From the NCBI GenBank assembly GCA_046597065.1, contig JBKJLI010000003.1:2807-66806 (forward strand): a stretch of DNA of 64,000 nt, written 5' to 3'. The stretch comes from Candidatus Saccharimonadia bacterium. GTDB taxonomy: Bacteria > Patescibacteriota > Saccharimonadia > UBA4664 > SCTI01. Under the pieces are notes generated by a model, which saw only the letters and a list, made by a program, of their open reading frames with translations, was not told the origin of the DNA and did no database searches. Positions 680 to 29,710 of the stretch are shown in pieces (the first letter of the stretch is position 1; each line of letters opens with the position of its first letter). A program made the position numbers and the translations under genes.

Positions 680-680
<1 letters not shown>
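414..680 (-). CDS. atpC: F1Fo ATP synthase epsilon subunit
   Basis: 88-aa beta-sandwich-like protein immediately downstream of atpD and overlapping it at 680. Operon position is typical of atpC. Confidence 0.7.
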
Positions 681-2938
<2,258 letters not shown>

Positions 2939-2942
<4 letters not shown>

Positions 2943-4363
2943 GCCCGCACCTGCACGGCCGAGGCTGCCAGAAGTTGTTGAACCACTGGGTTGGGATCGG
3001 CGTTTTCGGCGAGTTGGGCCGATTTTTCGGCCGCCTGCTTTTTAAGCATAGGGATATTAAGTGATGCCCGCCCCTCGCCGGCCATTACCGTTGCCAGCAT
3101 TAAGTACTGCGTATTTAGGTCGTATAACTCGCTTGGTGGTTGTTTATAAATATCATATATGGCTTTACCCAATGCCAAATCAGCCTGAGTTTGGGGCGCA
3201 AGCTCTGATCCGAACTGCGAAAACTCTGAGGCCTGGCGAAAATCGGCCAACTTTTTAAACAGCAGCCCAGATAGTATCTTCCACTGGTTGTGCTGCACTC
3301 GGCCACCCACACGCGAAACGCTTAGGCCCACGTTTACAGCTGGTCTAATCCCGCGCCTAAAGCTATTTTGGTCGAATATAATCTGCCCGTCGGTGATACT
3401 CATTACGCTAGTGGGCAAGTAAGCGGTAATGTCATCGTTTGGTGTTAGTACCACTGGTAGCGCCGTTAAGGTGCCACCACTGCTGGCCAGTTTGCCGGCT
3501 CGTTCAAGTAGCGAAGAGTGGGCATAAAACATGTCGCCGGGGTAAGAGTCGCGACCGGGGCTAACTTCGGCCAGTAGGCTAAGTTCGCGATGGGCCTTGG
3601 CGTGATTGCTTAAATCGTCATAAATCATAATGACGTTTTTGCCGTCCCGCCAAAAGTGCTCACCAATTGCGCAGGCCACATACGGCGCCAAAAATGACAG
3701 GCTTAGGGCTTCAAAGGTACTGGCTACCACCATAATGGTGTTTTTCATGGCGCCGGTAGCCCTAAAGCTGGCCACCAGCGTATCAATATCCACCTGCCGC
3801 TTAGCAATTAGTACGTAAACCACAATCTGGCCGGCATTGGTTTGGTAGGTGGTTAGCTGGCGTAAAAAAGTACTTTTACCGGTTTTATTGTCTCCCAATA
3901 TGGCCAAGCGCTGCCCCAATACAAACGGAAACAGCGAATCTACAATCGACACACCAGTAACCAGTTGGTCGCTTAACATGTCGCGCTCAATAATTCCTGG
4001 TGCCGGAGCAAACACATCGTTATAGCCACTGATCGCAACCGGACCCTCCCCATCAAGCGGTTCACCCAGCACATTAATAATTCGCCCAACCAAGCCCTCG
4101 CCTACTCCGGTTTGGTAAACCTGCTGGTCTAAAACCGCCAGCATTCCCAATCGCAACCGGTTGGTTGAAAGTGCTAAGACTTCGACCAGCTGGTCACTAA
4201 CCGCCCGCACTAATCCTTGATCGCCATTTTCAAAACGGACTAGCGAGTTAATGCTCACGCCCTCTAGCCCGCGAACCTTAATTAAAAGTGAGTTGGTGCT
4301 TACAACCTCGCCGCTGGGACGGCCGTCGGCGATTAACTTGCTAAAAGCTTGGTTATCAAACAC
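2939..4363 (-). CDS. atpA: F1Fo ATP synthase alpha subunit
   Basis: 474 aa with P-loop GDNKTGKST and alpha-subunit conserved blocks (IYDDLSNHA..., ITDGQI). Confidence 0.95.
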
Positions 4364-4820
4364 GTTCTAGCACCCGCGTAAACCGCACCGGTTCTTTTAG
4401 TAACCTGGTTCGAAACGACCAGTCAAACACCTTGTTGGTGGTACGCATAATCATACCGCCACCAATATCGGGGCTAACTAAAAACTCCACCATCACTTCG
4501 GGGGAGGTGTTCTTTCTGAGCCAGCTAACCAGCTCCCGCTTCATGGTGTGGGGTGCTGTTGCCGCTAAGGTAAGACTAACGCTGGGGGCAGCCGCCAGGT
4601 GATGCTCCATCTCGCTCACCAGCGCATTAACAACATCGGCCCGGCTGCTATCGGCTCCCTTAATTTCTACAAACAGGTCGGTCGACTCAACCGAAAGCTC
4701 TGGTACAACTGCATTTGAACCGCGCTGGCGCTGATCAAGCGCGTCGGCATAGGCCTTTAACTCATCAATGCAAAAGCGCAGGTGATCTGGCGAATAGATG
4801 CTACTTGGAAGCAGTGCCAC
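4356..4820 (-). CDS. atpH: F1Fo ATP synthase delta (OSCP) subunit
   Basis: 154 aa between atpF and atpA. Helical N-terminus, conserved C-terminal region, operon position. Confidence 0.7.
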   Translation of the reverse strand: MALLPSSIYSPDHLRFCIDELKAYADALDQRQRGSNAVVPELSVESTDLFVEIKGADSSRADVVNALVSEMEHHLAAAPSVSLTLAATAPHTMKRELVSWLRKNTSPEVMVEFLVSPDIGGGMIMRTTNKVFDWSFRTRLLKEPVRFTRVLERV

Positions 4821-5427
4821 TTGTAATCTCTCGCTTTAACTCATCACGATGGCGCTCTAAGTTGGCCAGTAAGTAGCTGCGCTGCGCACCTAAATCGGCA
4901 TCTATACCCAAACTCTCTACAATATAGGCGGCCACGGCGGCACCCAACTTTTTATCAAGCTGGTCCATTAAATACTGCCGACGCTTAACCATTTCGGCGT
5001 CCATATCGCCCTCTAGCTCGGTCTGCTTTTGCTCGACGGTGGATTCCATTTTGCGCAACGCCGCTATGGCCTGTTCGCGAGCATTAGCTAAACTAACCCG
5101 GTAATCTTCAAGCTCACGCTCTACCACATCGGTGGTTAAGTTAACTATCAGTTTGTTTAATTGAGTCGAAGTTGTCGCCAAATCTTGGTGAAAACCTTTG
5201 GCGGCTGCAGCAACGGCTTGGCGGTAGGCCTCTTGAGTGCTAGTTTGCAGGCGCGCCAGTTCGGCTTCGGTAATATGAGGTATTTCTGGCAGCGGCGCCT
5301 GCTGCTGAACAGCCTCGGCCTTATCTTGTTCAACAACTTCAGTTGGCCGCCGGCTAAGCATCAGTGCCAGTAGGATTGCTCCAACGAGCACCCCTCCGAC
5401 TACCAAAATAATTTGAATGGTTGTCAT
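4801..5427 (-). CDS. atpF: F1Fo ATP synthase b subunit
   Basis: N-terminal single TM helix (IQIILVVGGVLVGAILLALML) followed by a long charged coiled coil. Operon position. Confidence 0.65.
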   Translation of the reverse strand: MTTIQIILVVGGVLVGAILLALMLSRRPTEVVEQDKAEAVQQQAPLPEIPHITEAELARLQTSTQEAYRQAVAAAAKGFHQDLATTSTQLNKLIVNLTTDVVERELEDYRVSLANAREQAIAALRKMESTVEQKQTELEGDMDAEMVKRRQYLMDQLDKKLGAAVAAYIVESLGIDADLGAQRSYLLANLERHRDELKREITSGTASK

Positions 5428-5433
5428 TTCACC

Positions 5434-6282
5434 CTACCTCGTTAACACCAAAAATGCTGCACTCATGGCCAGCCCTAAAACTAGGATACTTATTGCAATC
5501 ACCTGCCACAGCCCGCGATATATGCTCGACTGCGCCAAGGGATTTCGACCGATTGATACCATCGTACTGCGCACCGCCGAAAACAGCAAAACTCCAACCG
5601 CTATCAAAGAGCCTATCAAAATCACTGCACTCAAAATAATCCGCACCAGCGAAACTTGCTTGCCGGCCAGCTGGTTTGCAAACAGCTGTAAAAACTGCGG
5701 AACATAGGTTTTTTGCACCGGTGCAACGTAGTATGTAACCTGTAAATTGGCGGCCACCGTGCCCAGTTTAGCGGTTTTGGTGCTACCGTCGCTGCTCTTT
5801 ACTTCAACCGTTTTGGAACCATATTTAGCATCAGACTGGGCCGTACCAACCACCTTGCCCGACTCGTTGGCCTTCATCCCAACTCCAGAAATAGGTGAGG
5901 GCGCAATGATATCGCCGGCCTTAACCTCACCATTTAGGTCGCTTACAAAAGCCTCGGCCTGACCGCTGGTTGAAACCTGAAAAAGATCACCAGGGCTGCT
6001 AACTGCTAGGTTTGCTTCGGTAGTACCAACCACTACACCAATTAGTCCGGCCGAGTTACTGGTGTCAGCCAAAATTGCTTTGCCCTTTTCGCCATCTTTT
6101 AAAGCCACCAAGCTACCCGCCGAAAGCGTAGTGTCTGATCGGTAGCCCTGGCTAATAGCCGCCGCTGTTACACTTGGCGACAGTGCAAGCACCAGCACAA
6201 GTAGAGCTAGGCTATTAGCCAGCCTGCGGCCAATACCTTGAGTCATAGTTACCTTCATCTGTTTGTGCGAAATAAGCCTCAC
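5434..6282 (-). CDS. Secreted Gly/Ser/Thr-rich protein with C-terminal two-helix membrane anchor (hypothetical). It occupies the position where atpB/atpE would be expected.
   Basis: Signal-peptide-like N-terminus (RRLANSLALLVLVLALSPSVTAAA), about 180 aa of low-complexity extracellular region, then a C-terminal two-TM hairpin. No a-subunit or c-subunit signature is present. Confidence 0.45.
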   Translation of the reverse strand: MRLISHKQMKVTMTQGIGRRLANSLALLVLVLALSPSVTAAAISQGYRSDTTLSAGSLVALKDGEKGKAILADTSNSAGLIGVVVGTTEANLAVSSPGDLFQVSTSGQAEAFVSDLNGEVKAGDIIAPSPISGVGMKANESGKVVGTAQSDAKYGSKTVEVKSSDGSTKTAKLGTVAANLQVTYYVAPVQKTYVPQFLQLFANQLAGKQVSLVRIILSAVILIGSLIAVGVLLFSAVRSTMVSIGRNPLAQSSIYRGLWQVIAISILVLGLAMSAAFLVLTR

Positions 6283-6343
6283 CTCAAGGTGCGCACTCCT
6301 ATAGTTCTTACGCTAAATTATAACAGCTATATAACGGGAGTGA

Positions 6344-7378
6344 CTAGTCTTTAGTTATAGATTTGGCCGTAGTGGTTGCTAGCGGCCGTTTTTGTCGCCT
6401 GGCCACCTTACGCATATCATCAAAGCGATCAAACTCGTCTGCAATCTCGCGATCAATAATCTCTTCGAGAACGTCCTCAATCGTGACAATCCCCTGAACC
6501 TCGGTAAACTCATCTATCACCACAAATAGGTGATTGCGGGTTTTTAAGAAAGCATTCAAGGTTTCATCCAAATTGTCCTCTAAATTAACAAAGTAAACCT
6601 TAGAACGCGCTAACTGCCCGGCGGTTTTACGCTCAACATTCTGCCCCACCAAATCCTTCATAAACAGCATGCCGGCAATATCGCGCTCGGCGGCATCGCG
6701 ATGAACGGGAATCCTTGAAAACCCAGTCTTTTTTAAGTTGGCCAAAGTAGCCTTATCTAGCCTTTGATCGGCCGAAATTAAGGTGGCCACACTGCGCGGC
6801 GTCATCACCTCTTTAATTTTGCGATCACCAAAGCTAAGCGCTCCACGGGCAATCCGCACCTCGTCTTGATCAATCTCGCTTTCGGCATGAAAACGGTGCT
6901 CCTCGATAATCTTGGTCAGCTCGCGTTTAGAATATACCGTAGGAAGTTCGTCGCCCAGCATGCGATCGAGCATCCACGCAATTGGTGCGCAAACTGGATA
7001 AAAAATCCACATTATTACTTGCACAACATCGGTAAAGCGAGCGCCAATTTGCAGGGCGTAGCGAGCAATAATCGCCTGGGGCAAAATCTCACCAAAAACC
7101 GTAATCAAAGCTGTAGTTAAAATGCCGGCAATAATGCCGTGATAAACCGAGTCCAACACAATTGACAGTGTCGAGATAACTGCCACATTACCGGTTAGTA
7201 AAGTTACCAAAAGTAGGTTGCCGCGAGAACGAATTTGAAACACCTTTTTGGCATTTGCGTCGCCAAGTGCTGCCTTACGCCTAAGTTCAAAGGTGTCTAG
7301 ACTCATTAAGCCCAAATTTAAGCCCGAAAACAACGCCGCCAAAGCGATAAGTGCAATCGAAATAAGCACTAAAAACAT
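6344..7378 (-). CDS. CNNM/CorB-family transporter (DUF21 transmembrane domain + CBS pair), putative Mg2+/Co2+ efflux
   Basis: N-terminal 4-TM DUF21-like region followed by a tandem CBS-like region (EVMTPRS...; IPVHRD...). The acidic C-terminus lacks a CorC_HlyC domain. Confidence 0.7.
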   Translation of the reverse strand: MFLVLISIALIALAALFSGLNLGLMSLDTFELRRKAALGDANAKKVFQIRSRGNLLLVTLLTGNVAVISTLSIVLDSVYHGIIAGILTTALITVFGEILPQAIIARYALQIGARFTDVVQVIMWIFYPVCAPIAWMLDRMLGDELPTVYSKRELTKIIEEHRFHAESEIDQDEVRIARGALSFGDRKIKEVMTPRSVATLISADQRLDKATLANLKKTGFSRIPVHRDAAERDIAGMLFMKDLVGQNVERKTAGQLARSKVYFVNLEDNLDETLNAFLKTRNHLFVVIDEFTEVQGIVTIEDVLEEIIDREIADEFDRFDDMRKVARRQKRPLATTTAKSITKD

Positions 7379-7401
7379 AGCGCTATTGTATCAGGCCGTC
7401 A

Positions 7402-8133
7402 TTAGCCAAGTGCTCGCGAAACCGCGTAAACACTTGCCGCACCTACAACCGTTAAACCAAAAATTGGCCACGACCAACGTTCACGATGAGCCTCTGGCAA
7501 CACGCTGCTGGTACCGATATAAAGCAGAAATCCGCCCAGCAAACCAATCGCAATTGCCAGTTCTGACTGATTAAAGTTAACCAAAGTTCCAACTAGCGCA
7601 CCAACTACCGGAGCGATTGCGCCGGCCAGAAGCATGACAATTGTACGCCGTGTTTGATTGCCATGTGCCAGCATAAGGCTGACCGTATTTAAACCATCCG
7701 AAAAATCGTGCGCCACTACTGCCAGAGCCACCGCCAACCCCACCGCCGCGCTGGCCTGAAAACCAACACCGATGGCCACACCATCTAAAAACGAGTGCGC
7801 AATTAGCCCAGTCGCCGCTGCCACGCCTACTATTGGCACAGGGTGGTGGTGGTCATCTTCGGCCTCATGGGCGTGATGGGCCGAGACCGATTTTTCGAAA
7901 GCATGAAACACTAAAAAGCCGGCCAGTAATGCAACCATTGGAGCGGTTAAGGTTTGGCCACTCTCACCGGTAATGCTCACTAATTCCGGAATAATATCAA
8001 ACGCCACTACCCCAAGTACTACCCCAGCCGTTAGCCCCAAAATCTGTCGCAAATACCTACGGTAACGCAGGGCAAACAGGCCTCCGGCGAGGGTTGAAAT
8101 AAAGGCCAGCAAACCGGCAATAACGGCGTTCAT
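7402..8133 (-). CDS. ZIP-family divalent metal (Zn2+/Fe2+) permease, ZupT-like
   Basis: 243 aa with 8 TM. His-rich loop (HHAHEAEDDHHH) and metal-binding motifs HSFLDG and AHDFSDG are typical of the ZIP family. Confidence 0.8.
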   Translation of the reverse strand: MNAVIAGLLAFISTLAGGLFALRYRRYLRQILGLTAGVVLGVVAFDIIPELVSITGESGQTLTAPMVALLAGFLVFHAFEKSVSAHHAHEAEDDHHHPVPIVGVAAATGLIAHSFLDGVAIGVGFQASAAVGLAVALAVVAHDFSDGLNTVSLMLAHGNQTRRTIVMLLAGAIAPVVGALVGTLVNFNQSELAIAIGLLGGFLLYIGTSSVLPEAHRERWSWPIFGLTVVGAASVYAVSRALG

Positions 8134-8184
8134 AATCTGTTATTTATACGCCCGATTTACTTTTGCTGCAACCGTGGCGTTAAG

Positions 8185-8742
8185 TTAAGGCAGATCAATC
8201 TGCGTATGTTGATCAACCCCTCTTAAGGTATCTAAAAAGACAAAGCTAAACCGTTTTTCGTTTGCAGGCACCAAGTAGCTCAGCTGCCCCGAAACCGTCT
8301 GTCCGCTTTTAATCGGTCCGGCGTTTATTGGGTTAGGAATTTCCGCTGGCGACATTTGAAATATCTTGCCACTAGATCCTTGAACAAAAGTTTGATTAAC
8401 CGGTGCGAAGTCATAGGTATATCTTGAATGGTTAACCAGCTCTAAATCTACCACCAAAAACTTATAACCATCTGGTGGGGCCAACGGCCCATGACCGGTA
8501 GTTAGTTCGGTAGAATTTTTGATGAGCCAATCTATCGGTGCCGGCTGCACCGAAACCGTTGCCGCCGGTGCTTGAACCCTTCCACCTGCCAGTCTTAGTG
8601 CCAACAAGCCAACCATCGCACCCGAAATTAGCCATAAAACTACTAGCGTCCAACTAACCCCTTTATGAATATGGCGATGACTGCGCGGGCTTCGTGCCCC
8701 AACCTTTTTGATTTTGTGCTGTGGCTCTTTAGGGTGTTTCAT
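8185..8742 (-). CDS. Membrane-anchored DUF4352-like beta-sandwich protein (hypothetical)
   Basis: N-terminal basic tail plus a single TM, then about 130 aa extracytoplasmic domain resembling DUF4352 proteins of Gram-positives. Confidence 0.4.
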   Translation of the reverse strand: MKHPKEPQHKIKKVGARSPRSHRHIHKGVSWTLVVLWLISGAMVGLLALRLAGGRVQAPAATVSVQPAPIDWLIKNSTELTTGHGPLAPPDGYKFLVVDLELVNHSRYTYDFAPVNQTFVQGSSGKIFQMSPAEIPNPINAGPIKSGQTVSGQLSYLVPANEKRFSFVFLDTLRGVDQHTQIDLP

Positions 8743-9377
8743 TAGTTTGCCGGCCCTATGTAATAACTGTTCAAAATACTATAGGCGGCTGAGCTATGAG
8801 CGTGCTGCTGGCCGCCAGTAGCCGCCGAGCCGTTAAGGTAGCTTGTAATGTTATGGCCACAAGATGCGCTGTTAAACACGCTTTGACCACCCGGGTGACT
8901 GCCCCCAGTAACATAACTACTAATGTTGTAGTACTTAGATGAATAAATCACCCAGCAGTTTGATTGGGTATTGTGCGTGGCAATTTGGGCGGCCGAACAA
9001 GTGCCGCCGGCCTGGCCGCAGCTTGGCGCCGGCGGTGGAGGGGGTGGCGAAGTTGGGGGTGGTGTTGGCGAAGGTGTTGGAGTCGGCGCTGGTGCCGGTG
9101 AGGGGCTAGTTTTTGTGCCGGAGCTTGGGCTAGTGCCTGGAGGCGTAGTTGGGCTTGGTGTCGGCGCTGGTGCACTAGAGCCTCCGCCGCCGGTTGATCC
9201 CCCAGCTGAACTACCATCGCCAGTTGTAACGCCGTTGACTGGGGTGTTCGCAACCCCCACCGCCCCGAGCAGAGGGCCATTTGCACCTTTGGGCGCTAAC
9301 GCACCAGCGACAATTACCGTTAACATGCTACCGGTAAAACTTATTAAACAAATTGCGACTAGGGTTTTTAACTTCAT
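8742..9377 (-). CDS. Secreted protein with Pro/Thr/Ser-rich linker and C-terminal cytochrome b5-like heme-binding domain
   Basis: Signal peptide followed by a PT-rich linker (SPSPAPAPTPTPSPTPPPTSPPPPPPAP). C-terminus carries HNTQSNCWVIYSSKYYNISSYVTGGSHPGG...CGHN, matching the cyt-b5 pattern H..W.I...VY.I..F...HPGG plus a second His. Confidence 0.6.
   Translation of the reverse strand: MKLKTLVAICLISFTGSMLTVIVAGALAPKGANGPLLGAVGVANTPVNGVTTGDGSSAGGSTGGGGSSAPAPTPSPTTPPGTSPSSGTKTSPSPAPAPTPTPSPTPPPTSPPPPPPAPSCGQAGGTCSAAQIATHNTQSNCWVIYSSKYYNISSYVTGGSHPGGQSVFNSASCGHNITSYLNGSAATGGQQHAHSSAAYSILNSYYIGPAN
8990..9240. repeat. Low-complexity GC-rich tract (GGN/CCN periodic) encoding the Pro/Thr-rich linker of the cyt-b5 protein
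   Basis: Visible runs of ggcg/ggtg/ggag repeats. The overlapping antisense ORFs 8948..9286 and 8971..9495 are artefacts of this tract. Confidence 0.6.
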
Positions 9378-10690
9378 GACATTGCAAACTCTTCTGAATG
9401 AATTTTACTCTTTTTTATTCCCATTTTGGAAATTTGACCCTTCATGGCGGCCATCATTGGTGGCGGTCCGCACAATAATACTTCGGCATTGCTAATGTCA
9501 CCTGAATGCTCGCTAATCTTGGCAGCGTCTAAAAAGCCCACCTCGTCTGCGATGATTGGAATAACTCTCAGCGCACCATTGCTTTTAGTTACCAAACCAG
9601 ATAAGTAGTCCCAATCAATTAATTCAGCCTGGCTCTTTACACTATAGTAAAGGTCGACCTTATAATCACTGCCGACATCGCTAGCCATGCTTAAAAATGG
9701 AGTAATGCCAATGCCTCCGGCAATCCATATTTGGCGCTTTGAATGAAAGTTTTTAAAAGAAAAACGACCGTAAGCGCCCTCTATCATCACCTCTTGCCCA
9801 GCAAGATTGTTGGCAATCGAAACCAGCGTTTTGGTGTAGCTCCCCAGGCTTTTGACGGTTATGGCTAAGCCTTCGGCGTTACTATTTGAAGAGATCGAAA
9901 ACGGATGCCACTCATGCGATAAACCCTCTGAACGGAAGCTTACAAACACAAACTGACCAGCCTTAAAATCAATACGCCGACCTTTAGGTACCATCGTTAA
10001 TGTCACCACTCCCTTGGTTGGTTCGGCCACGTTGGCTACCTCGTAGTTATAGTGGCGTACAAAAAACCGCGGCAATAGTGTGCGGTAAACAAAGGCTGCG
10101 GCTGCAAGAGCCAACATGGCATACAAATATAGTCTTAGCGAAGGATTTGAGTTGGTGTCACTAGAAACCAATGCGATATGAAGCACCATTAACAACAAAA
10201 CCACCCCAAGAAACTTGTGGGTAATTAACCAGATACGATAGGGTAGCGAAATATAGAAAGTCACCACCATTAGGCCAATAAAAATCCAAAGTGCCAGGAT
10301 GCCAAGCGTAGTGGCAAAGTTGGCTACAAAGGGAATCAATAAATCCGAACCAGCACGAAGTGAGGTTGGAGTTAAGCGTAAAGCCAAGGTTATGGGGTGC
10401 ATTAGCAATACACATAAAGCTAACCCACCCAACAAGTGGTGAGCAATATACACCTTATTTAACCCACCAAACAAGTCCTCAAAAACCGGTATACGCGTGG
10501 CCAAAATCATGTTTTGACAAAACAGTACTGCTGCCACAATCCCTGATAATCGCCCAATACTCCCAAGAGCTAAAACAAGATTGCCAAAGCGCTCGCTCAA
10601 CGGGTACATAGTCGCCCACATCACAATTGGAATAAAGGCTGATAAAAATACCAACGGCCAGCCCAACCGCCAACTTCGAACTAAATTCAT
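9374..10690 (-). CDS. NOX/ferric-reductase (FRD) superfamily membrane flavocytochrome (bis-heme TM domain + FAD + NAD(P)H domain)
   Basis: 6 TM region with paired His (HHLLGG...LLMH; THKFLG...VLH), FAD motif HPFSIS, NAD(P)H motifs GGIGITP and CGPPPM. Confidence 0.75.
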   Translation of the reverse strand: MNLVRSWRLGWPLVFLSAFIPIVMWATMYPLSERFGNLVLALGSIGRLSGIVAAVLFCQNMILATRIPVFEDLFGGLNKVYIAHHLLGGLALCVLLMHPITLALRLTPTSLRAGSDLLIPFVANFATTLGILALWIFIGLMVVTFYISLPYRIWLITHKFLGVVLLLMVLHIALVSSDTNSNPSLRLYLYAMLALAAAAFVYRTLLPRFFVRHYNYEVANVAEPTKGVVTLTMVPKGRRIDFKAGQFVFVSFRSEGLSHEWHPFSISSNSNAEGLAITVKSLGSYTKTLVSIANNLAGQEVMIEGAYGRFSFKNFHSKRQIWIAGGIGITPFLSMASDVGSDYKVDLYYSVKSQAELIDWDYLSGLVTKSNGALRVIPIIADEVGFLDAAKISEHSGDISNAEVLLCGPPPMMAAMKGQISKMGIKKSKIHSEEFAMS

Positions 10691-10787
10691 ATACCTATTC
10701 TAGCCACTGCCCCAACCATAAGCAATTCACTGTTTTATCTGATTAATTAGCCTTTGGGCCAGCCAATTCTCAGTTAAAAATGCTATT

Positions 10788-11222
10788 ATGGTGGTTATGC
10801 AACCAGCAGTTCTGCAAGTATACAGCCGCTATATCGCCTTCGCCCAGGCCTCTATTGCCACCGTTGGCAGCCTATTTTTGAGCGAAATCCTTCACCTGCC
10901 GCCCTGCGTTCTGTGTTGGTACCAACGCATCGCTATGTACCCACTAGTCATCATTATGGCTGTTGGTATTTTGCGACGAGACCAAAAAATATACCAATAT
11001 GCTCTGCCGCTTGCTACCATCGGTTGGGTAATCAGCTTTTACCACAGCCTGCTGCAGTGGCACATTATCCCCGACAAGTTGGCGCCCTGCGTTCAGGGAA
11101 TCTCCTGCACCACTGTTCAAGTGCACCTACTCGGGTTCATTACAATTCCGTTTATGGGGCTAACCGCCTTTAGTATTATTATTGCAGCCCTAATAGTTGA
11201 GTGGAGGAGTAGTTCTAAATGA
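10788..11222 (+). CDS. dsbB: Disulfide bond formation protein B (DsbB/BdbC family)
   Basis: 4 TM with CxxC in the first extracytoplasmic loop (PPCVLCWYQRI) and a second Cys pair (APCVQGISCTT). Confidence 0.7.
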   Translation: MVVMQPAVLQVYSRYIAFAQASIATVGSLFLSEILHLPPCVLCWYQRIAMYPLVIIMAVGILRRDQKIYQYALPLATIGWVISFYHSLLQWHIIPDKLAPCVQGISCTTVQVHLLGFITIPFMGLTAFSIIIAALIVEWRSSSK

Positions 11223-11851
11223 GTCGCGAAGCCAAAATTTTAATTGCCATTCTAGTAGTAATTGTAGGAGGCATGATTGCCTTATTCTCGCTTGGCGGCG
11301 GATCTAGCACTCCTACCACCAGCGTTGATCAGTCCAAACTAGTTAAGGCCGATAGCCACAAACAGGGCAGTGGCCCCGTTACATTAGTAGAGTTTGGTGA
11401 CTACCAGTGCCCCAGTTGCGGCGTCGCCTTCCCTACCATTCAGAAGCTGCAAACCGAGTACGATGGCAAAATAACCTTTGTGTTCCGTCACTTCCCCCTT
11501 ACTACAATCCACAAAAATGCCATGATTGGAGCCGAAGCGGCCGAGTCTGCTGGTAGCCAGGGCAAATATTTTGAGATGCATGACAAGTTGTATTCCAACC
11601 AGGCTAAGTGGAGCGAGTTACCCGACCCCACCGATACGCTAGTTAGCTACGCGGCTGAAATAGGCTTAGACATAGACAAGTTCAAAAAAGATCTAAGCGA
11701 GAAAACTCATAAAAGCCGCATTGAAGCCGACCAGGCCGATGGTAATAGCCTGCAAATTCAGGGCACACCCACTATTTACATAAATGGCGAGCAACAAACC
11801 GCCTTCGATTACGCTACGCTTAAAGCCGCTGTCGACAAAGCCCTTAAGTAG
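11219..11851 (+). CDS. DsbA/BdbD-like thiol-disulfide oxidoreductase (thioredoxin fold, membrane-anchored)
   Basis: N-terminal TM anchor, CPSC active site (FGDYQCPSCG) and cis-Pro region (QGTPTIYING). Start codon overlaps the dsbB stop. Confidence 0.75.
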   Translation: MSREAKILIAILVVIVGGMIALFSLGGGSSTPTTSVDQSKLVKADSHKQGSGPVTLVEFGDYQCPSCGVAFPTIQKLQTEYDGKITFVFRHFPLTTIHKNAMIGAEAAESAGSQGKYFEMHDKLYSNQAKWSELPDPTDTLVSYAAEIGLDIDKFKKDLSEKTHKSRIEADQADGNSLQIQGTPTIYINGEQQTAFDYATLKAAVDKALK

Positions 11852-12632
11852 AAATTTCCAATTTAGATAGGGGCAACTTTAATTCAAAAGTTGTTTTGCC
11901 CTTTTGACTATAATCAAGTTTTATTTCTCCAGAGAAATCATTTTCAATATAGTTTTTTGCCATTGTTAATCCTATGCCAATTCCGCAACCCTGTTTTCTA
12001 GCTGAACAAAATGGCTCAAATATGGTTTTGCGCGAACTTATTGGAACTCCTCCAGCGCTATCGGTTATTTTGATAAAAAGATGTTGGTCCTTAGTTTCAG
12101 TTGCGACCATAACAACCCTTGGCTTAGTGCCGCTAGCTGGGTATGCGTCAATTGCATTGGCGATCAAGTTTGCTACTACTTTGTTAAACTTAACCGGATC
12201 TCCGAAAAGTCTTACACCGTCACCATTACTCTGGATTACAACACCACTATGCCGTGCCTTATACCCGAGTACTTCTACGACTCGCTTAATCTCTTGTTCG
12301 ACTTCAAAAAACTGTTGGTCACTTTTACCTTGAAGTTGAATCCTTAAGGCTCCAACGTATCTTTCGATGCACTTTAATGACATTTTGGCTTCTGTTAATT
12401 CGGCGCTCTTCACCTTATCTTCCAAACTCTCGATATTTGCCGATAAGGCCACCAATGGATTAGCAATATCATGGACTAGGCCCGAAGTTAATCGGCCAAA
12501 CTCAGCATAAATGTGAATCTCTTTATCTACGATCAAATAGGCTTTAAGCAAGGGATCTACCTTTATATAGATTAACCAAGCCGTCAGCGTGATAAATATC
12601 AGAGTTACTCCAAATGTGATGACATCGAACAT
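11844..12632 (-). CDS. Sensor histidine kinase (minimal sensor domain)
   Basis: Single N-terminal TM, H-box LVHDIANPL, N box NLIANAIDA, G boxes DSAGG and GCGIGIGL. Confidence 0.75.
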   Translation of the reverse strand: MFDVITFGVTLIFITLTAWLIYIKVDPLLKAYLIVDKEIHIYAEFGRLTSGLVHDIANPLVALSANIESLEDKVKSAELTEAKMSLKCIERYVGALRIQLQGKSDQQFFEVEQEIKRVVEVLGYKARHSGVVIQSNGDGVRLFGDPVKFNKVVANLIANAIDAYPASGTKPRVVMVATETKDQHLFIKITDSAGGVPISSRKTIFEPFCSARKQGCGIGIGLTMAKNYIENDFSGEIKLDYSQKGKTTFELKLPLSKLEIST

Positions 12633-12655
12633 TTTTGATACTCATACAATCCGGC

Positions 12656-13360
12656 TCATGCCACCAGTTGTTTAGTGTTATTGGCTCTAACATTAGGATC
12701 TAACTTATAGCCAATACCATGTATGGTTTGAATTAACTTGATTTCAAAAGGTCGATCAACTTTGTCTCGCAAGTATTTGATGTGTACATCGATTGCATTG
12801 GTCCAAAGATTATCATTCATATCCCATACGTGATCTAATATCATCTGCCGGGTTAAAGACTTGCCGTTATTAAGCATCAGATACTCTAGTAAATCAAACT
12901 CTTTGCGCCTTAAACTTAGCTCGATGCCATCTCTTGAGCAGGTACGGTTAGCCGAATCCAAGATTAAGCCTCCAACTGATATTTCGCTGGAGGTTATGTT
13001 AGCACTTTCGCGTCTTAGAAGGGCTCGAATTCTAGCCTTCAACTCTTCAAGGCTGAATGGTTTTGTTAGGTAATCATCCGCACCCAAATCTAATAGTGAA
13101 ACCTTTTCATCAATCTCGACCATGCCCGTTAATATAAGGATTGGAGTTGAGTTACCATTTGATCGTAAGTCTTTACAAACTGATTTGCCTGGCTTATCTG
13201 GCAGGTCAAGGTCCAGTAAAATTACATCGTACTCACTAGTATCTAGGTAGCTATAACCTTCTTCCGCTGTTGCCGCGGCGTCAATTATATAGCTGTTTCT
13301 AAGCCCTCTTTTTAATGCGGAGCTCACATATTTATCATCTTCAATGAGTAAAATTCTCAT
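12656..13360 (-). CDS. OmpR-family response regulator (REC + winged-helix)
   Basis: MRILLIEDD...DVILLDLDLPD receiver domain. C-terminal trans_reg_C helix (TRQMILDHVWD...IHGIGYKL). Confidence 0.85.
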   Translation of the reverse strand: MRILLIEDDKYVSSALKRGLRNSYIIDAAATAEEGYSYLDTSEYDVILLDLDLPDKPGKSVCKDLRSNGNSTPILILTGMVEIDEKVSLLDLGADDYLTKPFSLEELKARIRALLRRESANITSSEISVGGLILDSANRTCSRDGIELSLRRKEFDLLEYLMLNNGKSLTRQMILDHVWDMNDNLWTNAIDVHIKYLRDKVDRPFEIKLIQTIHGIGYKLDPNVRANNTKQLVA

Positions 13361-16690: not shown

Positions 16691-17833
16691 CTATTTTTTC
16701 ATCAACGCCCAAACCCGACGGGCTATTTCGCCGGCTTCGTCGGTTGCAACCACAAGTACCGGCTTCGCTGCATTGGCATCTGGCGATAATCCCAGATAGC
16801 TTAAACCGTTCATTATATGGTGGCGTAAGATTGCCGATCGCTCGCCAATAGTTCCAGTAAATACCACAGCATCAACGCCATCTAGCGCAGCCACCATCTG
16901 ACCGATCATTTTTTGGATAGAGTAAACATAAATGCTTAGTTGCAAGCGGGCTTTTGGCTCGCCGGCATGGTTGCGATCAAGCAAATCGCGTAAGTCAGCT
17001 GAAAGCCCAGTTAGCCCCAACAAACCGGAATTGGTACTAAGATACTTTTCTAAACCATCGTCACTTAAATTTAAATGCTGCTTAATCGCCAAGGCCGCCG
17101 ATATATCCAGACTGCCACTGCGCGTGGCCATGATCAACCCCTCTAGTGGTGAGTACCCCATGCTGGTATCAACACTTTTGCCGTCACGAAGTGCCGTCAC
17201 GCTAGAGCCGCTTCCAAGATGGCAAACCACCAACTTTGACGCCAGTTGATGTTCGGCTTGCAGTTTAAGCACCACTGCGGCAACCGAAATGCCATGATAG
17301 CCATAGCGCTTAATACCCGCCTCACTTGCCAGACCCATGGGTACGCCATAATACCAGGCCGGCGAGGCTTTAGTTAAATGAAAGGCGCTATCAGAAATAC
17401 CATAAAAGTTCGCCCCTCTAAACTCACTCTGCAAAGCTTTGAGCTCGCGAAGTGTCGCCTCGATATGTAATGGGGCTTGCTCATGGGCAGCTTTAAGCTG
17501 ATCATGAACGTGCTGGGTAATCAAATGGTCTTGAGTAAAAAAGTCCCCTGGCGCTACCACTCTTAAACCAATGTGATCAACACTTTTATCATCGCCCACT
17601 CCCGCATACTTTTCGAGCAGCGCCGGCAGCACTCGTGCCGCCTGTTTAACGCTTTCAAGCTTGGTTCCAATAGTTTTTTTAAGTCTTGGCGAACGCAGGT
17701 TGCAAACTACCTGCTTACCGACATTTTCAAAATGCAGCTCCAGAAGACTTTGCTCATCGCCTCCGCGGTATAGCGCATACTTGCAGCTGGCGCTACCAGG
17801 ATTAGAAACTAAAATTAACCCCGCCACTGCCAC
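16691..17833 (-). CDS. ackA: Acetate kinase
   Basis: ASKHA-fold signature at N-terminus (ILVSNPGSASCKYALY), VVCHLGSGSSV, and a C-terminal ...VFTGTIGERSA region. Confidence 0.85.
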   Translation of the reverse strand: MAVAGLILVSNPGSASCKYALYRGGDEQSLLELHFENVGKQVVCNLRSPRLKKTIGTKLESVKQAARVLPALLEKYAGVGDDKSVDHIGLRVVAPGDFFTQDHLITQHVHDQLKAAHEQAPLHIEATLRELKALQSEFRGANFYGISDSAFHLTKASPAWYYGVPMGLASEAGIKRYGYHGISVAAVVLKLQAEHQLASKLVVCHLGSGSSVTALRDGKSVDTSMGYSPLEGLIMATRSGSLDISAALAIKQHLNLSDDGLEKYLSTNSGLLGLTGLSADLRDLLDRNHAGEPKARLQLSIYVYSIQKMIGQMVAALDGVDAVVFTGTIGERSAILRHHIMNGLSYLGLSPDANAAKPVLVVATDEAGEIARRVWALMKK

Positions 17834-20145
17834 GCGTCGATCCCGGGCATATCGATGCCATTAATTTTTATATACTCGGTGTTCTCATCGATCATCTGCT
17901 GGTACTTAGACACCAAATGGCGCGACTCTTCAAAGGGCATGCGCTCTTGTTCGGCTAACTTTTCAAAAATGGCGATCGCAATGTGGTAGCGACTAGTGCG
18001 ATTACGCACATGCATGTCAAACGGGGTAGTAGTCGAGCCACTTTCTACATAGCCGCGCACATCAAAGCGATTTGGGTGATGGGTGTAGTTAAACAGAATT
18101 GCTTTAAAGGTTTCGGGATAGCCGTGAAAGTTGCAAATTACCGGCTTGGTGGCGGTAAAGCAGGCCTCAAACTCCTCACGATTTAAGATTGAGCCGCCTT
18201 GGCCCAAGCCGGTACTTGTCAGCGAACTAACGTTGACGCAGCGCAAGCGCGCAGCCGGTACTTCTTGTTTAGCCAGAGCAATTGCTGCCAATATTTCTTT
18301 GGTGGTGTAGTCGCCGATCCCAGCCAGAACCACGTCGGGGTGCTCATCGCTCGCGAAATCCCAAATCATTACCCCTGCCTTTAGTTGTTTACGAGCTAGA
18401 TCAGGAGTTAACCAGCGTGGCTCTTGGGTTTTACCAGCTACCAAAATGTTAATCTGTCGGGTGGTTTGTAGCATGTGCTCTAGCACCACTAAGGTTGAGT
18501 TGCCGCAGGGTGGAAAGTATACGTTTACAAAGTCGCCTTGACGTCGCAAGGCGTCATCAATAAAGCCGGGGTTTTGGTGTGAAAAGCCATTGTGGTCTTG
18601 GCGCCAACCCGAGGATGTCAAAATGTAGTTAAGCGAGGGGATGGCCCCGCGCCACTGCACCTGTATAGACTGGTTTAAAAACTTGGCAAACTGGTCCATC
18701 ATACTTACCACTACCTGCACAAAGGCCTCATAAGAGGCAAAAACGGCATGTCGACCGGTTAGCACGTAACCTTGAGCCAAGCCCTGCAAGTTATGCTCGC
18801 TTAACATCTCCATTACCCGTCCATCTGGCGCCATATCTTTATCCCACGACTCGCTAGGCCACACCCAGGCCCTTTTGGTTTGACCAAAAACCGCATCTAA
18901 CTTGTTTGAATAAGTTTCATCTGGTGACATCATCCGAAAATTTTTGGTGGCATGATTTAAGCGAAAGACTTCTTCTAAATACAGGCCGGCCCGGCGCATA
19001 CTACTAGAGCCAACCGTACCCGGAATGCTTGCATCTTCGGCAAACTTGTCGGCAGCCGGAAGCTTTAACGGGGTATAAATACCCTCTCCGCCATTAGCAT
19101 ATGGCCGGTTTCCAATGCGTAAACTTTCGGCTGGCATGATGGCATCTACAAACTCGCCAAAACCGTGCGACCGCGTAAACAGCTCCTCGATTTTGTACGA
19201 GCGCAGCCATTGATCTAACATTTTTAACTGTTTTGGGTCGCTCTTGGCTTCAGTTAAGACAACTTGGTGCGAGGCGTAGTTGCCCTCAATTTTTAAGCCA
19301 TCCAATTCCTTAACGCCGCTCCAACCCTTAAGCGTTCGCATAATGATCATGGGCATATGCACCGGTTGGCCGGGCTTGGTGCCCTTAATCACTTGAATTG
19401 TGGCATGAGCCCAATCTAAGGTAGCTTCCATTTGAGTATGTAAATCGTTACCGCTAACTATCCGTGGTTGATAGCCGTAACCGCTAAATAATGAAGTTAG
19501 TTCCTCGTCGCTCATACGCCCAAAAATGGTTGGCGCCGAAATTTTATAGCCATTTAAATGCAGAATTGGCAGTACCGCTCCGTTAGTTCGGGGGTCTATT
19601 AGCTTATTTAAATGCCAAGCACCAGCCGCTGGCCCAGTTTCGGCCTCACCGTCACCTACCAGACAGGCAACTAACAGTTCCGGCCGGTCCATGGCGGCTC
19701 CATAGGCATTTGATAACGAATAGCCTAACTCGCCGCCCTCTAAAATCACTCCAGGCGTACCGGGGTTACTATGGCTAGGAAAGCCGTAGGGCCAGCTAAA
19801 CTTACGGCATAAATAACCAATGCCTTCATAGGTGTTAGTGGCCTCCGGATAATAATTTTGCAAAGTGCCTTCCATAAACAAATTGGCTTGCAGCGCCGGA
19901 AAGGCGTGTCCGGGGCCCAATACAAACATTGAATCTTGATTGTGCTTTTTAACCAGCCGGCTTAAATGGCTGTATGCAAAACTAACACCGGGCCCGGAGC
20001 CCCAGTGGCCAAGCAAGCGCGGCTTGATGTGCTCGGCTTTAAGTGGCTGTTCTAGTAAAAAATTATCTTGCAGAAATATTTGAGCCGCCGTTAAGTAGTT
20101 GGCCGCCCGTAAATACTTTTCTAATGATTGCTTTGAATCTGACAT
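17815..20145 (-). CDS. xfp: Xylulose-5-phosphate/fructose-6-phosphate phosphoketolase (TPP-dependent)
   Basis: 776 aa with N-terminal motif HIKPRLLGHWGSGPG. Typical XFP length and conserved blocks. Overlaps ackA by 19 nt, consistent with an operon. Confidence 0.9.
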   Translation of the reverse strand: MSDSKQSLEKYLRAANYLTAAQIFLQDNFLLEQPLKAEHIKPRLLGHWGSGPGVSFAYSHLSRLVKKHNQDSMFVLGPGHAFPALQANLFMEGTLQNYYPEATNTYEGIGYLCRKFSWPYGFPSHSNPGTPGVILEGGELGYSLSNAYGAAMDRPELLVACLVGDGEAETGPAAGAWHLNKLIDPRTNGAVLPILHLNGYKISAPTIFGRMSDEELTSLFSGYGYQPRIVSGNDLHTQMEATLDWAHATIQVIKGTKPGQPVHMPMIIMRTLKGWSGVKELDGLKIEGNYASHQVVLTEAKSDPKQLKMLDQWLRSYKIEELFTRSHGFGEFVDAIMPAESLRIGNRPYANGGEGIYTPLKLPAADKFAEDASIPGTVGSSSMRRAGLYLEEVFRLNHATKNFRMMSPDETYSNKLDAVFGQTKRAWVWPSESWDKDMAPDGRVMEMLSEHNLQGLAQGYVLTGRHAVFASYEAFVQVVVSMMDQFAKFLNQSIQVQWRGAIPSLNYILTSSGWRQDHNGFSHQNPGFIDDALRRQGDFVNVYFPPCGNSTLVVLEHMLQTTRQINILVAGKTQEPRWLTPDLARKQLKAGVMIWDFASDEHPDVVLAGIGDYTTKEILAAIALAKQEVPAARLRCVNVSSLTSTGLGQGGSILNREEFEACFTATKPVICNFHGYPETFKAILFNYTHHPNRFDVRGYVESGSTTTPFDMHVRNRTSRYHIAIAIFEKLAEQERMPFEESRHLVSKYQQMIDENTEYIKINGIDMPGIDAWQWRG

Positions 20146-28531: not shown

Positions 28532-29710
28532 ATGATCGAAAAACAGCTATTTGGAGCCATTCTCTCCCGCATAAAGGTTGGCGCACTTAAAGTTACCTAC
28601 TGGGACGGCAGCACCATTACCTACGGCAATGCCAAACCGGATGTTCATATTACCTTTAAGAACGTTCAAGCTGCTCGAGCGATTTTAAAAAACATGAGCC
28701 TTGGCTTTGGCGAAGGTTACATGAACGGCGATATTGAAATTAAGGGCCCCCTGGATCACGTTGGTAAGATTATCAGCGAAAACCAAAAGGCCTTTAGCCG
28801 ACTGATGATTTCGCGACTTACTAGCATTAAGGTGCCCAACACTCGCAGTCGCCAAAAGGCGCAAATTCAGCACCACTACGACTTAGGAAACCAGTTTTAT
28901 AAGCTATGGCTAGACCGATCAATGACGTATAGTTGTGCATATTTTAAAAAAGATACCGACAGCTTAGAAGTAGCTCAAGACCAAAAACGCCAGCACTTAC
29001 TACGCAAGCTGCAGCTTAAGCCGGGCATGACCTTGCTAGATATTGGAAGCGGCTGGGGCGAGCTACTATTTACTGCTGCTAAAGATTATGGCATCACCGG
29101 CATGGGTGTAACTTTAAGCGCCGAACAGTACAAGCACTGTATCGACAAAGCCAATAAACTTGGGCTCGACGATAAGATTAAGTTTGAACTGATTAATTAC
29201 CAAGATCTGGCCGAGCGAAAAAATGTTCAGTTCGATCGAGTGATCAGCGTGGGCATGTTCGAACACGTTGGAAAGCGCAACCAAAGCCAGTACTTTGGCG
29301 CCGTAGATAAGCTGTTAAAGCTTGGCGGCATATCGGTCTTGCACACCATCTTCGTTGCCCGTGATCCCGGCAACGACCCTTGGATTGATAAGTATGTTTT
29401 CCCCGGTGGCTACCTGCCTGAACTCGCCGAAATATCGCGTTCGATGGCCGAACGTGACATGCACATGGTTGATTTAGAAAGTCTGCGCCTGCACTATGCC
29501 ATGACACTGGATGAGTGGTGGAAGCGCTATGAAACCCATAAGGCTGATGTTATTAAAATGTATGATAAGCGCTTTTACCGTATGTGGCGGTTTTGGTTGC
29601 AAATGTCGTCTGCTGGGTTCCGTTACGGCAACCTAGACCTGGGGCAGATTGTATTTACCAAGGGAATAAACAATGCTCTCCCACTAACGAGAGAGCATTG
29701 GTACAAGTAA
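28532..29710 (+). CDS. cfa: Cyclopropane-fatty-acyl-phospholipid synthase (SAM-dependent)
   Basis: CMAS-family blocks: LLDIGSGWGEL (SAM motif I), DRVISVGMFEHVG, YLPEL, and a conserved C-terminal region. Confidence 0.85.
   Translation: MIEKQLFGAILSRIKVGALKVTYWDGSTITYGNAKPDVHITFKNVQAARAILKNMSLGFGEGYMNGDIEIKGPLDHVGKIISENQKAFSRLMISRLTSIKVPNTRSRQKAQIQHHYDLGNQFYKLWLDRSMTYSCAYFKKDTDSLEVAQDQKRQHLLRKLQLKPGMTLLDIGSGWGELLFTAAKDYGITGMGVTLSAEQYKHCIDKANKLGLDDKIKFELINYQDLAERKNVQFDRVISVGMFEHVGKRNQSQYFGAVDKLLKLGGISVLHTIFVARDPGNDPWIDKYVFPGGYLPELAEISRSMAERDMHMVDLESLRLHYAMTLDEWWKRYETHKADVIKMYDKRFYRMWRFWLQMSSAGFRYGNLDLGQIVFTKGINNALPLTREHWYK

Follow-up and report, generated by a model that had tools for sequence, protein, structure and literature searches.

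Where does a bacterial flavocytochrome of the NOX/FRE family deliver the electrons that it carries out of the cell? The question is raised by three adjoining genes in a 64,000-nucleotide stretch of the genome of a Candidatus Saccharimonadia bacterium (assembly GCA_046597065.1, contig JBKJLI010000003.1, positions 2,807 to 66,806; hereafter the window), in which the gene for an enzyme resembling the bacterial NADPH oxidase SpNOX is followed by genes for a membrane-tethered cytochrome b5 protein and a DUF4352 protein. An initial annotation of the locus had favoured extracellular metal reduction coupled to import by a ZIP-family permease encoded just downstream. We find instead that the trio stands on its own, and that its products probably form a three-subunit, membrane-anchored outward relay that would take electrons from NAD(P)H via FAD and two haems to the tethered b5 and on to an external acceptor.

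What kind of enzyme is the flavocytochrome? Its sequence marks it as a true bacterial NOX/FRE protein, the bacterial NOX family being that defined by Hajjar et al. (2017). Its Pfam matches, which like every one cited here for a window gene lie above the gathering score, are to Ferric_reduct (PF01794, E 7e-10), FAD_binding_8 (PF08022, E 1.6e-11) and NAD_binding_1 (PF00175, E 2.9e-10), and they predict a six-helix ferric-reductase domain (FRD) for two b haems and, C-terminal to it, cytoplasmic domains for FAD and NAD(P)H. The closest solved relative is SpNOX (8qq7/8qt6), which aligns with residues 58 to 431, nearly the full length, at E 1e-32 and about 25-30% identity. Two His pairs on the third and fifth transmembrane (TM) helices, His84/His98 and His158/His171, have the spacings H-x13-H and H-x12-H and align with H69/H83/H129/H142 of SpNOX, the ligands of its inner and outer haems (PMC11564096). 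By homology, His84 and His158 would hold the inner haem and His98 and His171 the outer one. All four are invariant among 19 aligned homologues and in a six-sequence alignment that includes distant homologues at 22-27% identity. Equally invariant across the NOX alignments are the dehydrogenase motifs HPFS (residues 262-265), GGIGITP (325-331) and CGPP (407-410), together with the C-terminal F435, which occupies the position of SpNOX F397, a residue of documented role (PMC11031084). The protein has both the two His pairs that mark an FRD and the HPF[ST], GGxGxTP and CGPP motifs that mark an FNR-like dehydrogenase, and is predicted to be catalytic. The bis-His pairs, HPFS and GGIGITP had already been picked out in the initial annotation, and profile matches and invariant motifs now bear them out.

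The second protein ends in a domain that profile, ligands and fold alike predict to be a classical, haem-binding bis-His cytochrome b5. It matches PF00173 over residues 129-209 (41.0 bits against a cut-off of 23.7, E 2e-10), so that the b5 and reductase profiles are both matched above their gathering scores; it retains both axial His, one of them in the HPGG motif noted from the start; and hmmsearch found no b5-domain open reading frame (ORF) in the window other than this one. By sequence the domain matches cytochrome b5 entries of the PDB, including the bacterial b558 1cxy (E 1.2e-4). When its AlphaFold model was compared with the PDB by Foldseek, the top 35 matches were all cytochromes b5, with TM-scores (target) of 0.64-0.73 and root-mean-square deviations of 2.6-3.0 A over about 88 columns. 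Across the 12 sequences of a core alignment, His161 (HPGG) and His194 (HAHS) are invariant, and the HAHS segment of the window protein aligns on HEHS of the Scs7 b5 domain. Four Cys are invariant in the same alignment, C120, C127, C141 and C173, and would pair as disulfides C120/C127 and C141/C173.

How is this domain held at the cell surface? The protein had been described as secreted by way of a signal peptide. An extracytoplasmic location remains likely; release from the membrane is less so. Residues 2-27 are modelled as a helix (predicted local distance difference test, pLDDT, about 89) with a hydrophobic stretch of about 24 residues; the sole AxA-like site has Pro next to it, and the homologues have no AxA at all. 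Because a typical signal peptide would have a shorter hydrophobic stretch and no usable AxA site is present, the N-terminal helix, in which M1, L11 and G25 are invariant in the core alignment, is probably an uncleaved signal anchor, and the protein is probably tethered to the membrane and not freely secreted. Between anchor and b5 domain runs the expected linker, about 90 residues long, Gly/Ser-rich and then Pro/Thr-rich, with pLDDT below 50 over residues 31-70.

The NOX and b5 genes are bound closely together. The NOX stop and b5 start overlap by 4 nt in the sequence ATGA (...TCATGAAG), a reading of the junction that agrees with the translational coupling first proposed, and at the next junction, TAATG, the b5 stop shares 1 nt with the DUF4352 start. 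Is the arrangement peculiar to the window? A scan of one genome per species (GTDB representatives), using a 12-sequence b5 alignment and narrow peptide patterns, recovered 17 loci, all from Candidatus Saccharibacteria, Saccharimonadales or Patescibacteria metagenome-assembled genomes (MAGs). NOX, b5 and DUF4352 occur in that order in all 17 loci recovered through b5, and NOX and b5 adjoin in further contigs as well. Three loci (L001, L003 and L005) have the same trio between unrelated flanks, start and stop codons overlapping by 4 nt at one junction or at both. In three loci from other bacteria of the Candidate Phyla Radiation (CPR), of Pacebacteria/Paceibacterota type (L007, L008 and L111), the order is permuted to b5, DUF4352, NOX, and the retention of the trio through this change of gene order argues strongly that its members are functionally linked.

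Extra genes accompany the trio in some of these loci. In L012 a further b5 paralogue of 211 amino acids (aa) follows DUF4352 (5998-6630), and in L008 a 390-aa b5+fn3 protein follows NOX (8993-10165). Upstream of the cluster in L008 and L111 stand genes for an extracytoplasmic-function sigma factor and for large fn3/Big_7 surface proteins.

The conserved unit has DUF4352 as its third member and does not extend to ZIP, CNNM or BdbC/BdbD. The window arrangement recurs in L011 alone, the window's own genome; in no other trio locus was ZIP, CNNM, BdbC or BdbD found within 6 kb, and in about 22 other trio loci no ZIP, CNNM or shared transporter adjoins the trio. Membership of these genes in the module was accordingly rejected, and since they are absent from other trio loci the transporters and Dsb genes are taken as incidental neighbours. 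The initial annotation had placed DUF4352, ZIP and CNNM correctly downstream, but of the three only DUF4352 is linked to the pair by conservation, and BdbC/BdbD, thought of as a possible maturation pair for the Cys-containing partner, lie beside the trio in the window genome only. All-against-all clustering of the flanking ORFs gave lineage-level synteny only, for example an ABC transporter/FtsX pair in 5-6 related genomes. A PMT gene lies upstream in L003 and L004 only, and a histidine kinase/response regulator (HK/RR) pair is found in the window and in L007 (3772-5413) only.

What remains of reductive metal uptake, in which NOX-b5 would reduce extracellular Fe(III) or Cu(II) and the adjoining ZIP would import the product? 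The ZIP gene follows the trio on its strand after 51 nt, and no convincing terminator separates the two. Metal-transporter genes occur near other NOX-b5 loci, namely CDF directly upstream in L065, Nramp at about 5 kb in L004, and in L112 VIT1 about 4 kb upstream together with Fur about 5 kb downstream. The Fe2+ transporter VIT1 is also found in 153 of 1797 flavinylated MsrQ-like clusters, and these 153 have been proposed to be assimilatory iron reductases (PMC8238504). However, a shared strand means little here: the genes from 680 to 10690 form a single co-directional minus-strand string that includes those of the ATP synthase. A divalent-metal transporter within about 6 kb was seen in about 4 of about 35 NOX-b5 loci, which is near a rough chance estimate for compact genomes, and the transporters beside the window trio recur beside none of the others. 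Direct iron reduction by SpNOX is very slow (kcat 0.05 s-1; PMC11564096), and DUF4352 offers no conserved metal-ligand residues. We therefore consider metal uptake unlikely as the purpose of the unit. The other half of the original proposal, NAD(P)H-driven transmembrane transfer to an extracytoplasmic haem carrier, is the best-supported reading, while comparison lends no support to its coupling to ZIP.

If DUF4352 belongs to the unit, does it carry electrons too? The protein matches PF11611 (39 bits against a cut-off of 25.9, E 1.1e-9) and consists of a Lys/Arg/His-rich cytoplasmic tail, a TM helix at residues 31-51 and an extracytoplasmic, Ig-like beta-sandwich at residues 70-185, modelled with pLDDT of about 90. 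The nearest structures, YcdA (4r4g), YjhA (3cfu), YxkC and MPT63 (1lmi), are cofactor-less Gram-positive envelope proteins. An alignment of 21 trio-linked DUF4352 proteins contains no conserved His, Cys or Met, which makes a redox or metal site unlikely; with a fold that matches cofactor-less beta-sandwiches, such a site was rejected. There are weak indications, then, of a non-redox accessory subunit that acts in scaffolding, docking or target binding. A search with the single protein returned only itself, and a profile search returned Paceibacteria-type relatives. In the DUF4352 literature searched there is no mention of b5 or ferric reductase, and a publication on the Mpr DUF4352 nuclease/NTPase gives no lead for the trio context. 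The cytoplasmic tail (residues 1-30, 8650-8742) has a semi-conserved H-[RK]-x-V directly before the TM helix, with homologues alike in this, and a contact with the cytoplasmic dehydrogenase domain is possible.

Further evidence on the partner of NOX comes from its wider family. A metagenome scan with the NOX alignment gave 80 loci at 24-38% identity, and the 65 with at least 450 bp downstream of NOX were scored. A TM-anchored b5 gene directly adjoins NOX in 9 of these 65 distant loci, and FMN_bind followed by ApbE stands beside NOX in 15. The latter is the arrangement of the flavinylated "MsrQ-like" extracytosolic acceptors, in which a PF01794 protein, often with PF00175, is thought to feed electrons from NAD(P)H to a covalently flavinylated acceptor outside the cytosol (Meheust et al. 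2021, PMC8238504). Five b5-paired loci have a GC content of 61-70% and proteobacterial-type neighbours. In the complete genome of Halomonas sp. PGE1 (CP053032.1; L109, locus 3712-5840), a 430-aa NOX-like gene overlaps by 4 nt with a gene whose 279-aa product joins a TM helix to a b5 domain and to an FMN_bind-like domain; the latter bears an SGAT motif and scores 20.1 bits, just below the cut-off of 22. This b5 partner falls in a protein cluster with members in cultured Halomonas species, H. mongoliensis, H. alkalicola and other isolates among them. On a high-GC, proteobacterial-looking contig (L072, 662-3019), the NOX-like and TM-anchored b5 genes are followed by one for a dihaem cytochrome c (two CxxCH; Cytochrome_CBB3), a layout that suggests a longer periplasmic chain; the NOX partner in L034 has two b5 domains, and in L033 a MAPR-like b5 lies upstream of NOX.

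Two features of the partners bear on where they work. The Cys pair that flanks the b5 core (CW...CG) is kept in all of them, as would be expected of an extracytoplasmic b5 domain. From anchor to b5 core, the proteins of Saccharibacteria and other CPR bacteria span 100-215 residues, the high-GC proteobacterial partners about 30; this fits a tether whose length tracks the type of envelope, crossing a thick wall in the former and sitting in a periplasm in the latter. A rough neighbour-joining distance tree of the NOX proteins, midpoint-rooted and indicative only, places most b5-paired enzymes, the Saccharibacteria clade included, in one large group and a second b5/DUF4352-linked group closer to the FMN-paired enzymes.

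In two low-GC, CPR-like loci (L031, 2562-4732, and L032, 3160-5290), an ApbE-like gene abuts or overlaps the NOX-like start, and a small ORF with a TM segment and a Pro-rich region comes next, reaching within a few hundred bases of the contig end. Flavinylation-type NOX partners may exist in CPR bacteria too.

Could the tethered b5 instead be a haem receptor or chaperone for a haem-auxotrophic CPR cell, with NOX reducing haem iron for release or transfer? The unit needs three haems, and CPR bacteria are not known to synthesise haem. Haem release was the subject of speculation in a 2021 preprint on the Tyr-ligated cytb5MY of related CPR loci (bioRxiv 10.1101/2021.11.17.468889). The window b5, however, is of the classical bis-His HPGG type, a tight haem holder and not a Tyr-ligated MAPR-like protein, and no haem transporter adjoins the trio in any locus. 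The NOX-b5 pairing also occurs in Halomonas, a free-living organism that is not expected to depend on scavenged haem. We give haem trafficking hardly any credence.

For the relay from NAD(P)H to an external acceptor, the following path is proposed. The SpNOX-like protein would oxidise cytoplasmic NAD(P)H at its FAD/NAD(P)H domain, as its motifs and its homology to a characterised enzyme suggest, and by the same homology electrons would cross the membrane one by one, through the inner haem (His84/His158) and then the outer haem (His98/His171). The outer haem would reduce the bis-His haem of the tethered b5. This hand-over is the central step, and we infer it from the strict linkage of the genes and their translational coupling, the intact haem ligands, the extracytoplasmic hallmarks of the b5 protein and the interchangeability of redox partners in the wider family. 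The N-terminal helix would hold b5 at the membrane, and the tether, Gly/Ser- and then Pro/Thr-rich, would allow it reach. From reduced b5 the electron would go to an acceptor beyond the membrane or within the wall, for which Fe(III) or another oxidised metal, an envelope or host molecule, or O2 are possible. DUF4352 would serve as the non-redox subunit, as scaffold, for docking or for binding the target.

The properties of SpNOX leave room for such a partner. It has an exposed outer haem and no O2-binding site, and it reduces cytochrome c directly, at 125 min-1 as compared with 48 min-1 for O2 and 3.6 min-1 for iron; although bacterial NOX enzymes are well characterised in structure, the three papers on SpNOX describe their natural acceptor and function as unknown and suggest that a protein may fill the acceptor's place (PMC11564096; PMC11031084; PMC5676040). 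Could O2 nevertheless be the acceptor in the window? A true NADPH oxidase would make superoxide or H2O2 for host attack or signalling, or would scavenge O2, and b5 and DUF4352 would then help in maturation or regulation, as p22phox or DUOXA does. SpNOX does consume O2 and make superoxide in vitro (PMC5676040; PMC11564096), the His spacings and the FAD and NADPH motifs of the window protein match the NOX signature, and eukaryotic NOX enzymes require membrane partners of single- or multi-pass type. But a maturation factor would need neither an invariant bis-His haem site nor a tether of 100-200 residues, and the pairing of related enzymes with FMN_bind, cytochrome c and poly-b5 proteins points to onward electron transfer. 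SpNOX itself is without the O2-reducing pocket of the eukaryotic enzymes, and its authors are sceptical of O2 as the natural acceptor (PMC11564096; PMC11031084). A role as NADPH oxidase thus seems decidedly improbable.

How far could a b5-based path reach? A b5-domain search returned 364 representatives (at 50% identity) with E<=1e-10. The statement in the initial annotation that secreted b5 domains are uncommon in bacteria is only partly true, given these 364 relatives and the 185 CPR genomes of the 2021 preprint. Many of the best relatives carry 3-11 tandem b5 domains in proteins of 400-1777 aa (P0084-P0108 and others), the domains being canonical (HPGG...HS) with Pro/Thr linkers between. 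In L112 (4141-8406), a NOX-like gene and a single-b5 gene are immediately followed by one for a five-b5-domain protein, P0085. These arrays may be haem-b "wires"; no description of tandem-b5 proteins was found in the literature searched.

In another b5 subfamily (P0025-P0034), a signal peptide precedes a domain of about 146 residues, which a Pro/Thr linker connects to a b5 domain whose second His is shifted. The predicted mature N-terminus is His (A|HQPVF...), and the N-terminal domain has no Pfam or PDB match. Genes of this type lie at 6001-6843 in L009, with a NOX-like gene two genes off, and at 3626-4498 in L010, where there is none.

Long tethers and tandem domains bring up redox balancing by extracellular electron transfer, in which the NAD(P)H of a fermentative episymbiont would be re-oxidised through an external sink (quinones or redox proteins on a host surface, humics, minerals) with the tethered b5 as conduit through the wall. 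Phosphoketolase, acetate kinase and an F-type ATPase are encoded in the window, and no respiratory complexes are among the ORFs scanned (1-41.7 kb). Only the CPR versions have the long wall-spanning tethers; tandem arrays of 2-11 b5 domains, the commonest close relatives of the window b5 domain and in one case placed directly after a NOX-b5 pair, have their parallels in multi-flavinylated and multihaem conduits; and the NOX-like family swaps b5 with FMN_bind partners, whose extracytosolic electron transfer is known. On the other hand, no external acceptor for the electrons was found, and no publication on such a role turned up in the literature searched. The distribution of the trio in Saccharibacteria is patchy, with 17 species representatives found. 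Outward flow of electrons from NAD(P)H is moreover charge-dissipating and not energy-conserving, NOX enzymes being electrogenic. Redox balancing can be entertained only tentatively.

A bolder conjecture would join these observations. The b5 domains, single or in tandem on Pro/Thr tethers, would form a hitherto unrecognised conduit independent of cytochrome c and quinones, through which SpNOX-like enzymes, drawing directly on cytoplasmic NAD(P)H, discharge the fermentative reducing power of CPR bacteria onto a host surface or onto environmental oxidants, and the Halomonas pairing would point to b5 as the missing acceptor of bacterial NOX. Saccharibacteria and other CPR episymbionts are generally regarded as being without electron-transport chains. 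The conjecture is speculative, and we think it more probably wrong than right.

Several points weigh against the relay as proposed. Transfer from NOX to b5 is deduced from linkage alone, and haem binding by both proteins is predicted. CPR bacteria are not known to synthesise haem, and the cofactors of the unit would therefore need to be scavenged. The haem-pocket helices of the b5 model have only moderate confidence (pLDDT 60-67), and the role given to DUF4352 has little behind it beyond the exclusion of a redox function. One locus, L110, has DUF4352 and NOX with no called b5 gene. In several others the NOX gene is split into 2-4 ORFs next to intact b5 and DUF4352 genes (Table 1), which may be assembly error or decay, in which case the unit would be dispensable in some lineages; L028 comes from the MAG that also has the intact L012 and is a degraded second copy. 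The trio is, finally, either patchy in Saccharibacteria or under-sampled by narrow patterns that found it in 17 species representatives.

Table 1. Coordinates of the genes, protein segments and residues discussed, in window positions except for the last row, which gives positions within each locus.
Feature	Position	Strand	Evidence or remarks
SpNOX-like flavocytochrome, 438 aa	9374..10690	-	PF01794, PF08022, PF00175; SpNOX homology; invariant motifs
Haem-ligand His codons (predicted)	His84 10439-10441, His98 10397-10399, His158 10217-10219, His171 10178-10180	-	codons checked
Dehydrogenase motifs	9386..9907: HPFS from 9905-9907, GGIGITP 9698-9718, CGPP from 9470-9472, F435 9386-9388	-	invariant columns
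Membrane-tethered cytochrome b5 protein, 211 aa	8742..9377	-	PF00173; PDB b5 matches; junction sequence
N-terminal hydrophobic helix, residues 1-27	9297..9377	-	Kyte-Doolittle peak at residues 6-24; model
Gly/Ser- then Pro/Thr-rich tether, residues 28-117	9027..9296	-	disordered in model
Cytochrome b5 domain, residues 118-211	8745..9026	-	His161 8895-8897 (HPGG), His194 8796-8798
DUF4352 protein, 185 aa	8185..8742	-	PF11611
ZIP-family permease	7402..8133	-	PF02535, E 1.2e-18
CNNM+CBS protein	6344-7378	-	Pfam
Divergent intergenic region, NOX gene to bdbC	10691..10787	.	presumed promoter region of the trio, inferred
DsbB/BdbC	10788-11222	opposite to trio	Pfam
DsbA-like thioredoxin (BdbD)	11219-11851	opposite to trio	Pfam
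Split NOX genes in other loci	L003 4721-6004, L004 4678-6004, L019 4274-5581, L028 2587-3682, L036 3923-5277, L112 4141-5404		

The surroundings of the trio can be described briefly. The intergenic region listed in Table 1 is the sole non-coding gap upstream of the trio; a promoter and terminator scan of 5300-11300 gave nothing above shuffled expectation, and operon boundaries are not fixed by it. CNNM and BdbC/BdbD lie outside 7402-10690, the range first marked out for the locus. Beyond BdbD comes an OmpR-type two-component pair (HK 11844-12632, RR 12656-13360). At the other end, the F-type ATPase delta, alpha, gamma and beta genes (680-4820) are part of the same minus-strand string as the trio. 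Two membrane/coiled-coil proteins with no Pfam or NCBIfam match, of 282 aa (5434-6282) and 208 aa (4801-5427), are encoded between the CNNM and ATP synthase delta genes, and the former has a signal-like N-terminal segment and TM helices at its C-terminus. Phosphoketolase (XFP) and acetate kinase are encoded at 16691-20145, and a cyclopropane-fatty-acyl-phospholipid synthase (CMAS, E 2e-94) at 28532-29710, which is notable given the reduced lipid metabolism of the bacterium. An Rfam scan of the window gave one tRNA and nothing else.

How much of this was known? The association of NOX-like and b5 genes in CPR bacteria was already reported in the 2021 preprint, a study of MAPR origins, in which 185 of 7645 CPR genomes had PF00173 within 10 kb of PF01794; there cytb5MY colocalises with pFre, b5-like genes and two-component systems, the last at 22 of 36 CPR cytb5MY loci, and a membrane complex is proposed whose function would be specific to CPR but is left unknown (bioRxiv 10.1101/2021.11.17.468889). 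The window resembles these loci in having an FRD gene and a b5 gene together, within the 10 kb used there, in that all products have TM helices, and in the HK/RR pair nearby (11844-13360), although HK/RR adjacency is not conserved among the Saccharibacteria loci. It differs in the b5 proteins, which in the preprint are the Tyr-ligated, MAPR-like cytb5MY and the atypical CBLA/CBLB and in the window a single bis-His HPGG b5, joined by DUF4352. Neither Saccharibacteria nor DUF4352 is mentioned in the preprint (bioRxiv 10.1101/2021.11.17.468889). The pairing was held there to be absent outside CPR, which is contradicted by its presence in Halomonas and other high-GC contigs.

What is new, then, is a Saccharibacteria version in which a classical bis-His b5 comes with DUF4352 as an obligatory subunit; the occurrence of the pairing outside CPR, cultured Halomonas included; and its ties to the FMN_bind/ApbE alternative, to poly-b5 proteins and to the open question of the SpNOX acceptor. 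None of these four points (bis-His b5 with DUF4352, non-CPR pairing, the FMN_bind/poly-b5 tie and the SpNOX tie) was found in the literature searched, the coverage of which is incomplete; a search for CPR or Saccharibacteria together with ferric reductase or NADPH oxidase gave nothing relevant among the matches listed. The tethered cytochrome b5 becomes a genetically linked candidate acceptor for bacterial NOX, and Halomonas makes it testable. For CPR bacteria and Saccharibacteria, the unit would offer a minimal outward electron path in organisms considered non-respiring. Should the poly-b5 relatives conduct, they would be the haem-b equivalent of wires made of multihaem cytochrome c or multiple flavins; should the unit be only an assimilatory metal reductase, it would be a modest variant of known systems.

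Which known systems come closest? With SpNOX the window flavocytochrome shares six TM helices, the spacing of the haem His, HPFS, GGxGxTP, CGPP, the C-terminal Phe and the single-chain union of FRD and FNR, but its extracellular C-loop is about 15 residues longer, and its gene is translationally coupled to those for b5 and DUF4352, whereas SpNOX has been studied as a stand-alone enzyme with no known partner. MsrQ-MsrP and the MsrQ-like systems have in common with the window an FRD membrane protein that feeds, or in the window would feed, a dedicated extracytosolic redox protein encoded beside it (PMC8238504). There the acceptor is a covalently flavinylated FMN_bind protein or a molybdoenzyme, in the window it would be a non-covalent haem b5; no FMN_bind or ApbE homologue was found in the window (six frames, phmmer, E<=1) or in the trio loci. 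DUF4352 is likewise foreign to the MsrQ-like systems, the term having 0 occurrences in PMC8238504. In its proposed working the window unit resembles these systems without being a member of them.

The b5 domain on its own has a bacterial precedent in b558 of Ectothiorhodospira vacuolata (1cxy), which it matches both in sequence (see above) and in fold (TM-score 0.73). That protein is small and soluble, with 90 residues and no known partner, unlike the TM-anchored, long-tethered protein of the window with its operon link to a reductase. The combination of a FRE-family flavocytochrome with a ZIP-family permease recalls plant FRO2-IRT1, the NOX/FRE-family reductase and ZIP-family transporter of Strategy I iron uptake, and yeast Fre1-Fet3/Ftr1. 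FRO2 and Fre1, however, need no b5 relay, their outer haem reducing Fe(III) chelates directly, and the ZIP adjacency of the window is unconserved. A last parallel is the flavin-based Ndh2-EetA/B-PplA route of Gram-positive Listeria, which takes electrons of cytoplasmic NADH to a surface-tethered redox protein in a monoderm cell, where they serve to reduce outside acceptors (PMC9973259; PMC8238504). The proteins are unrelated, and while the Listeria route is described there as quinone-dependent and its PplA as flavinylated, the route proposed for the window would be independent of quinones and would run on b haems only.

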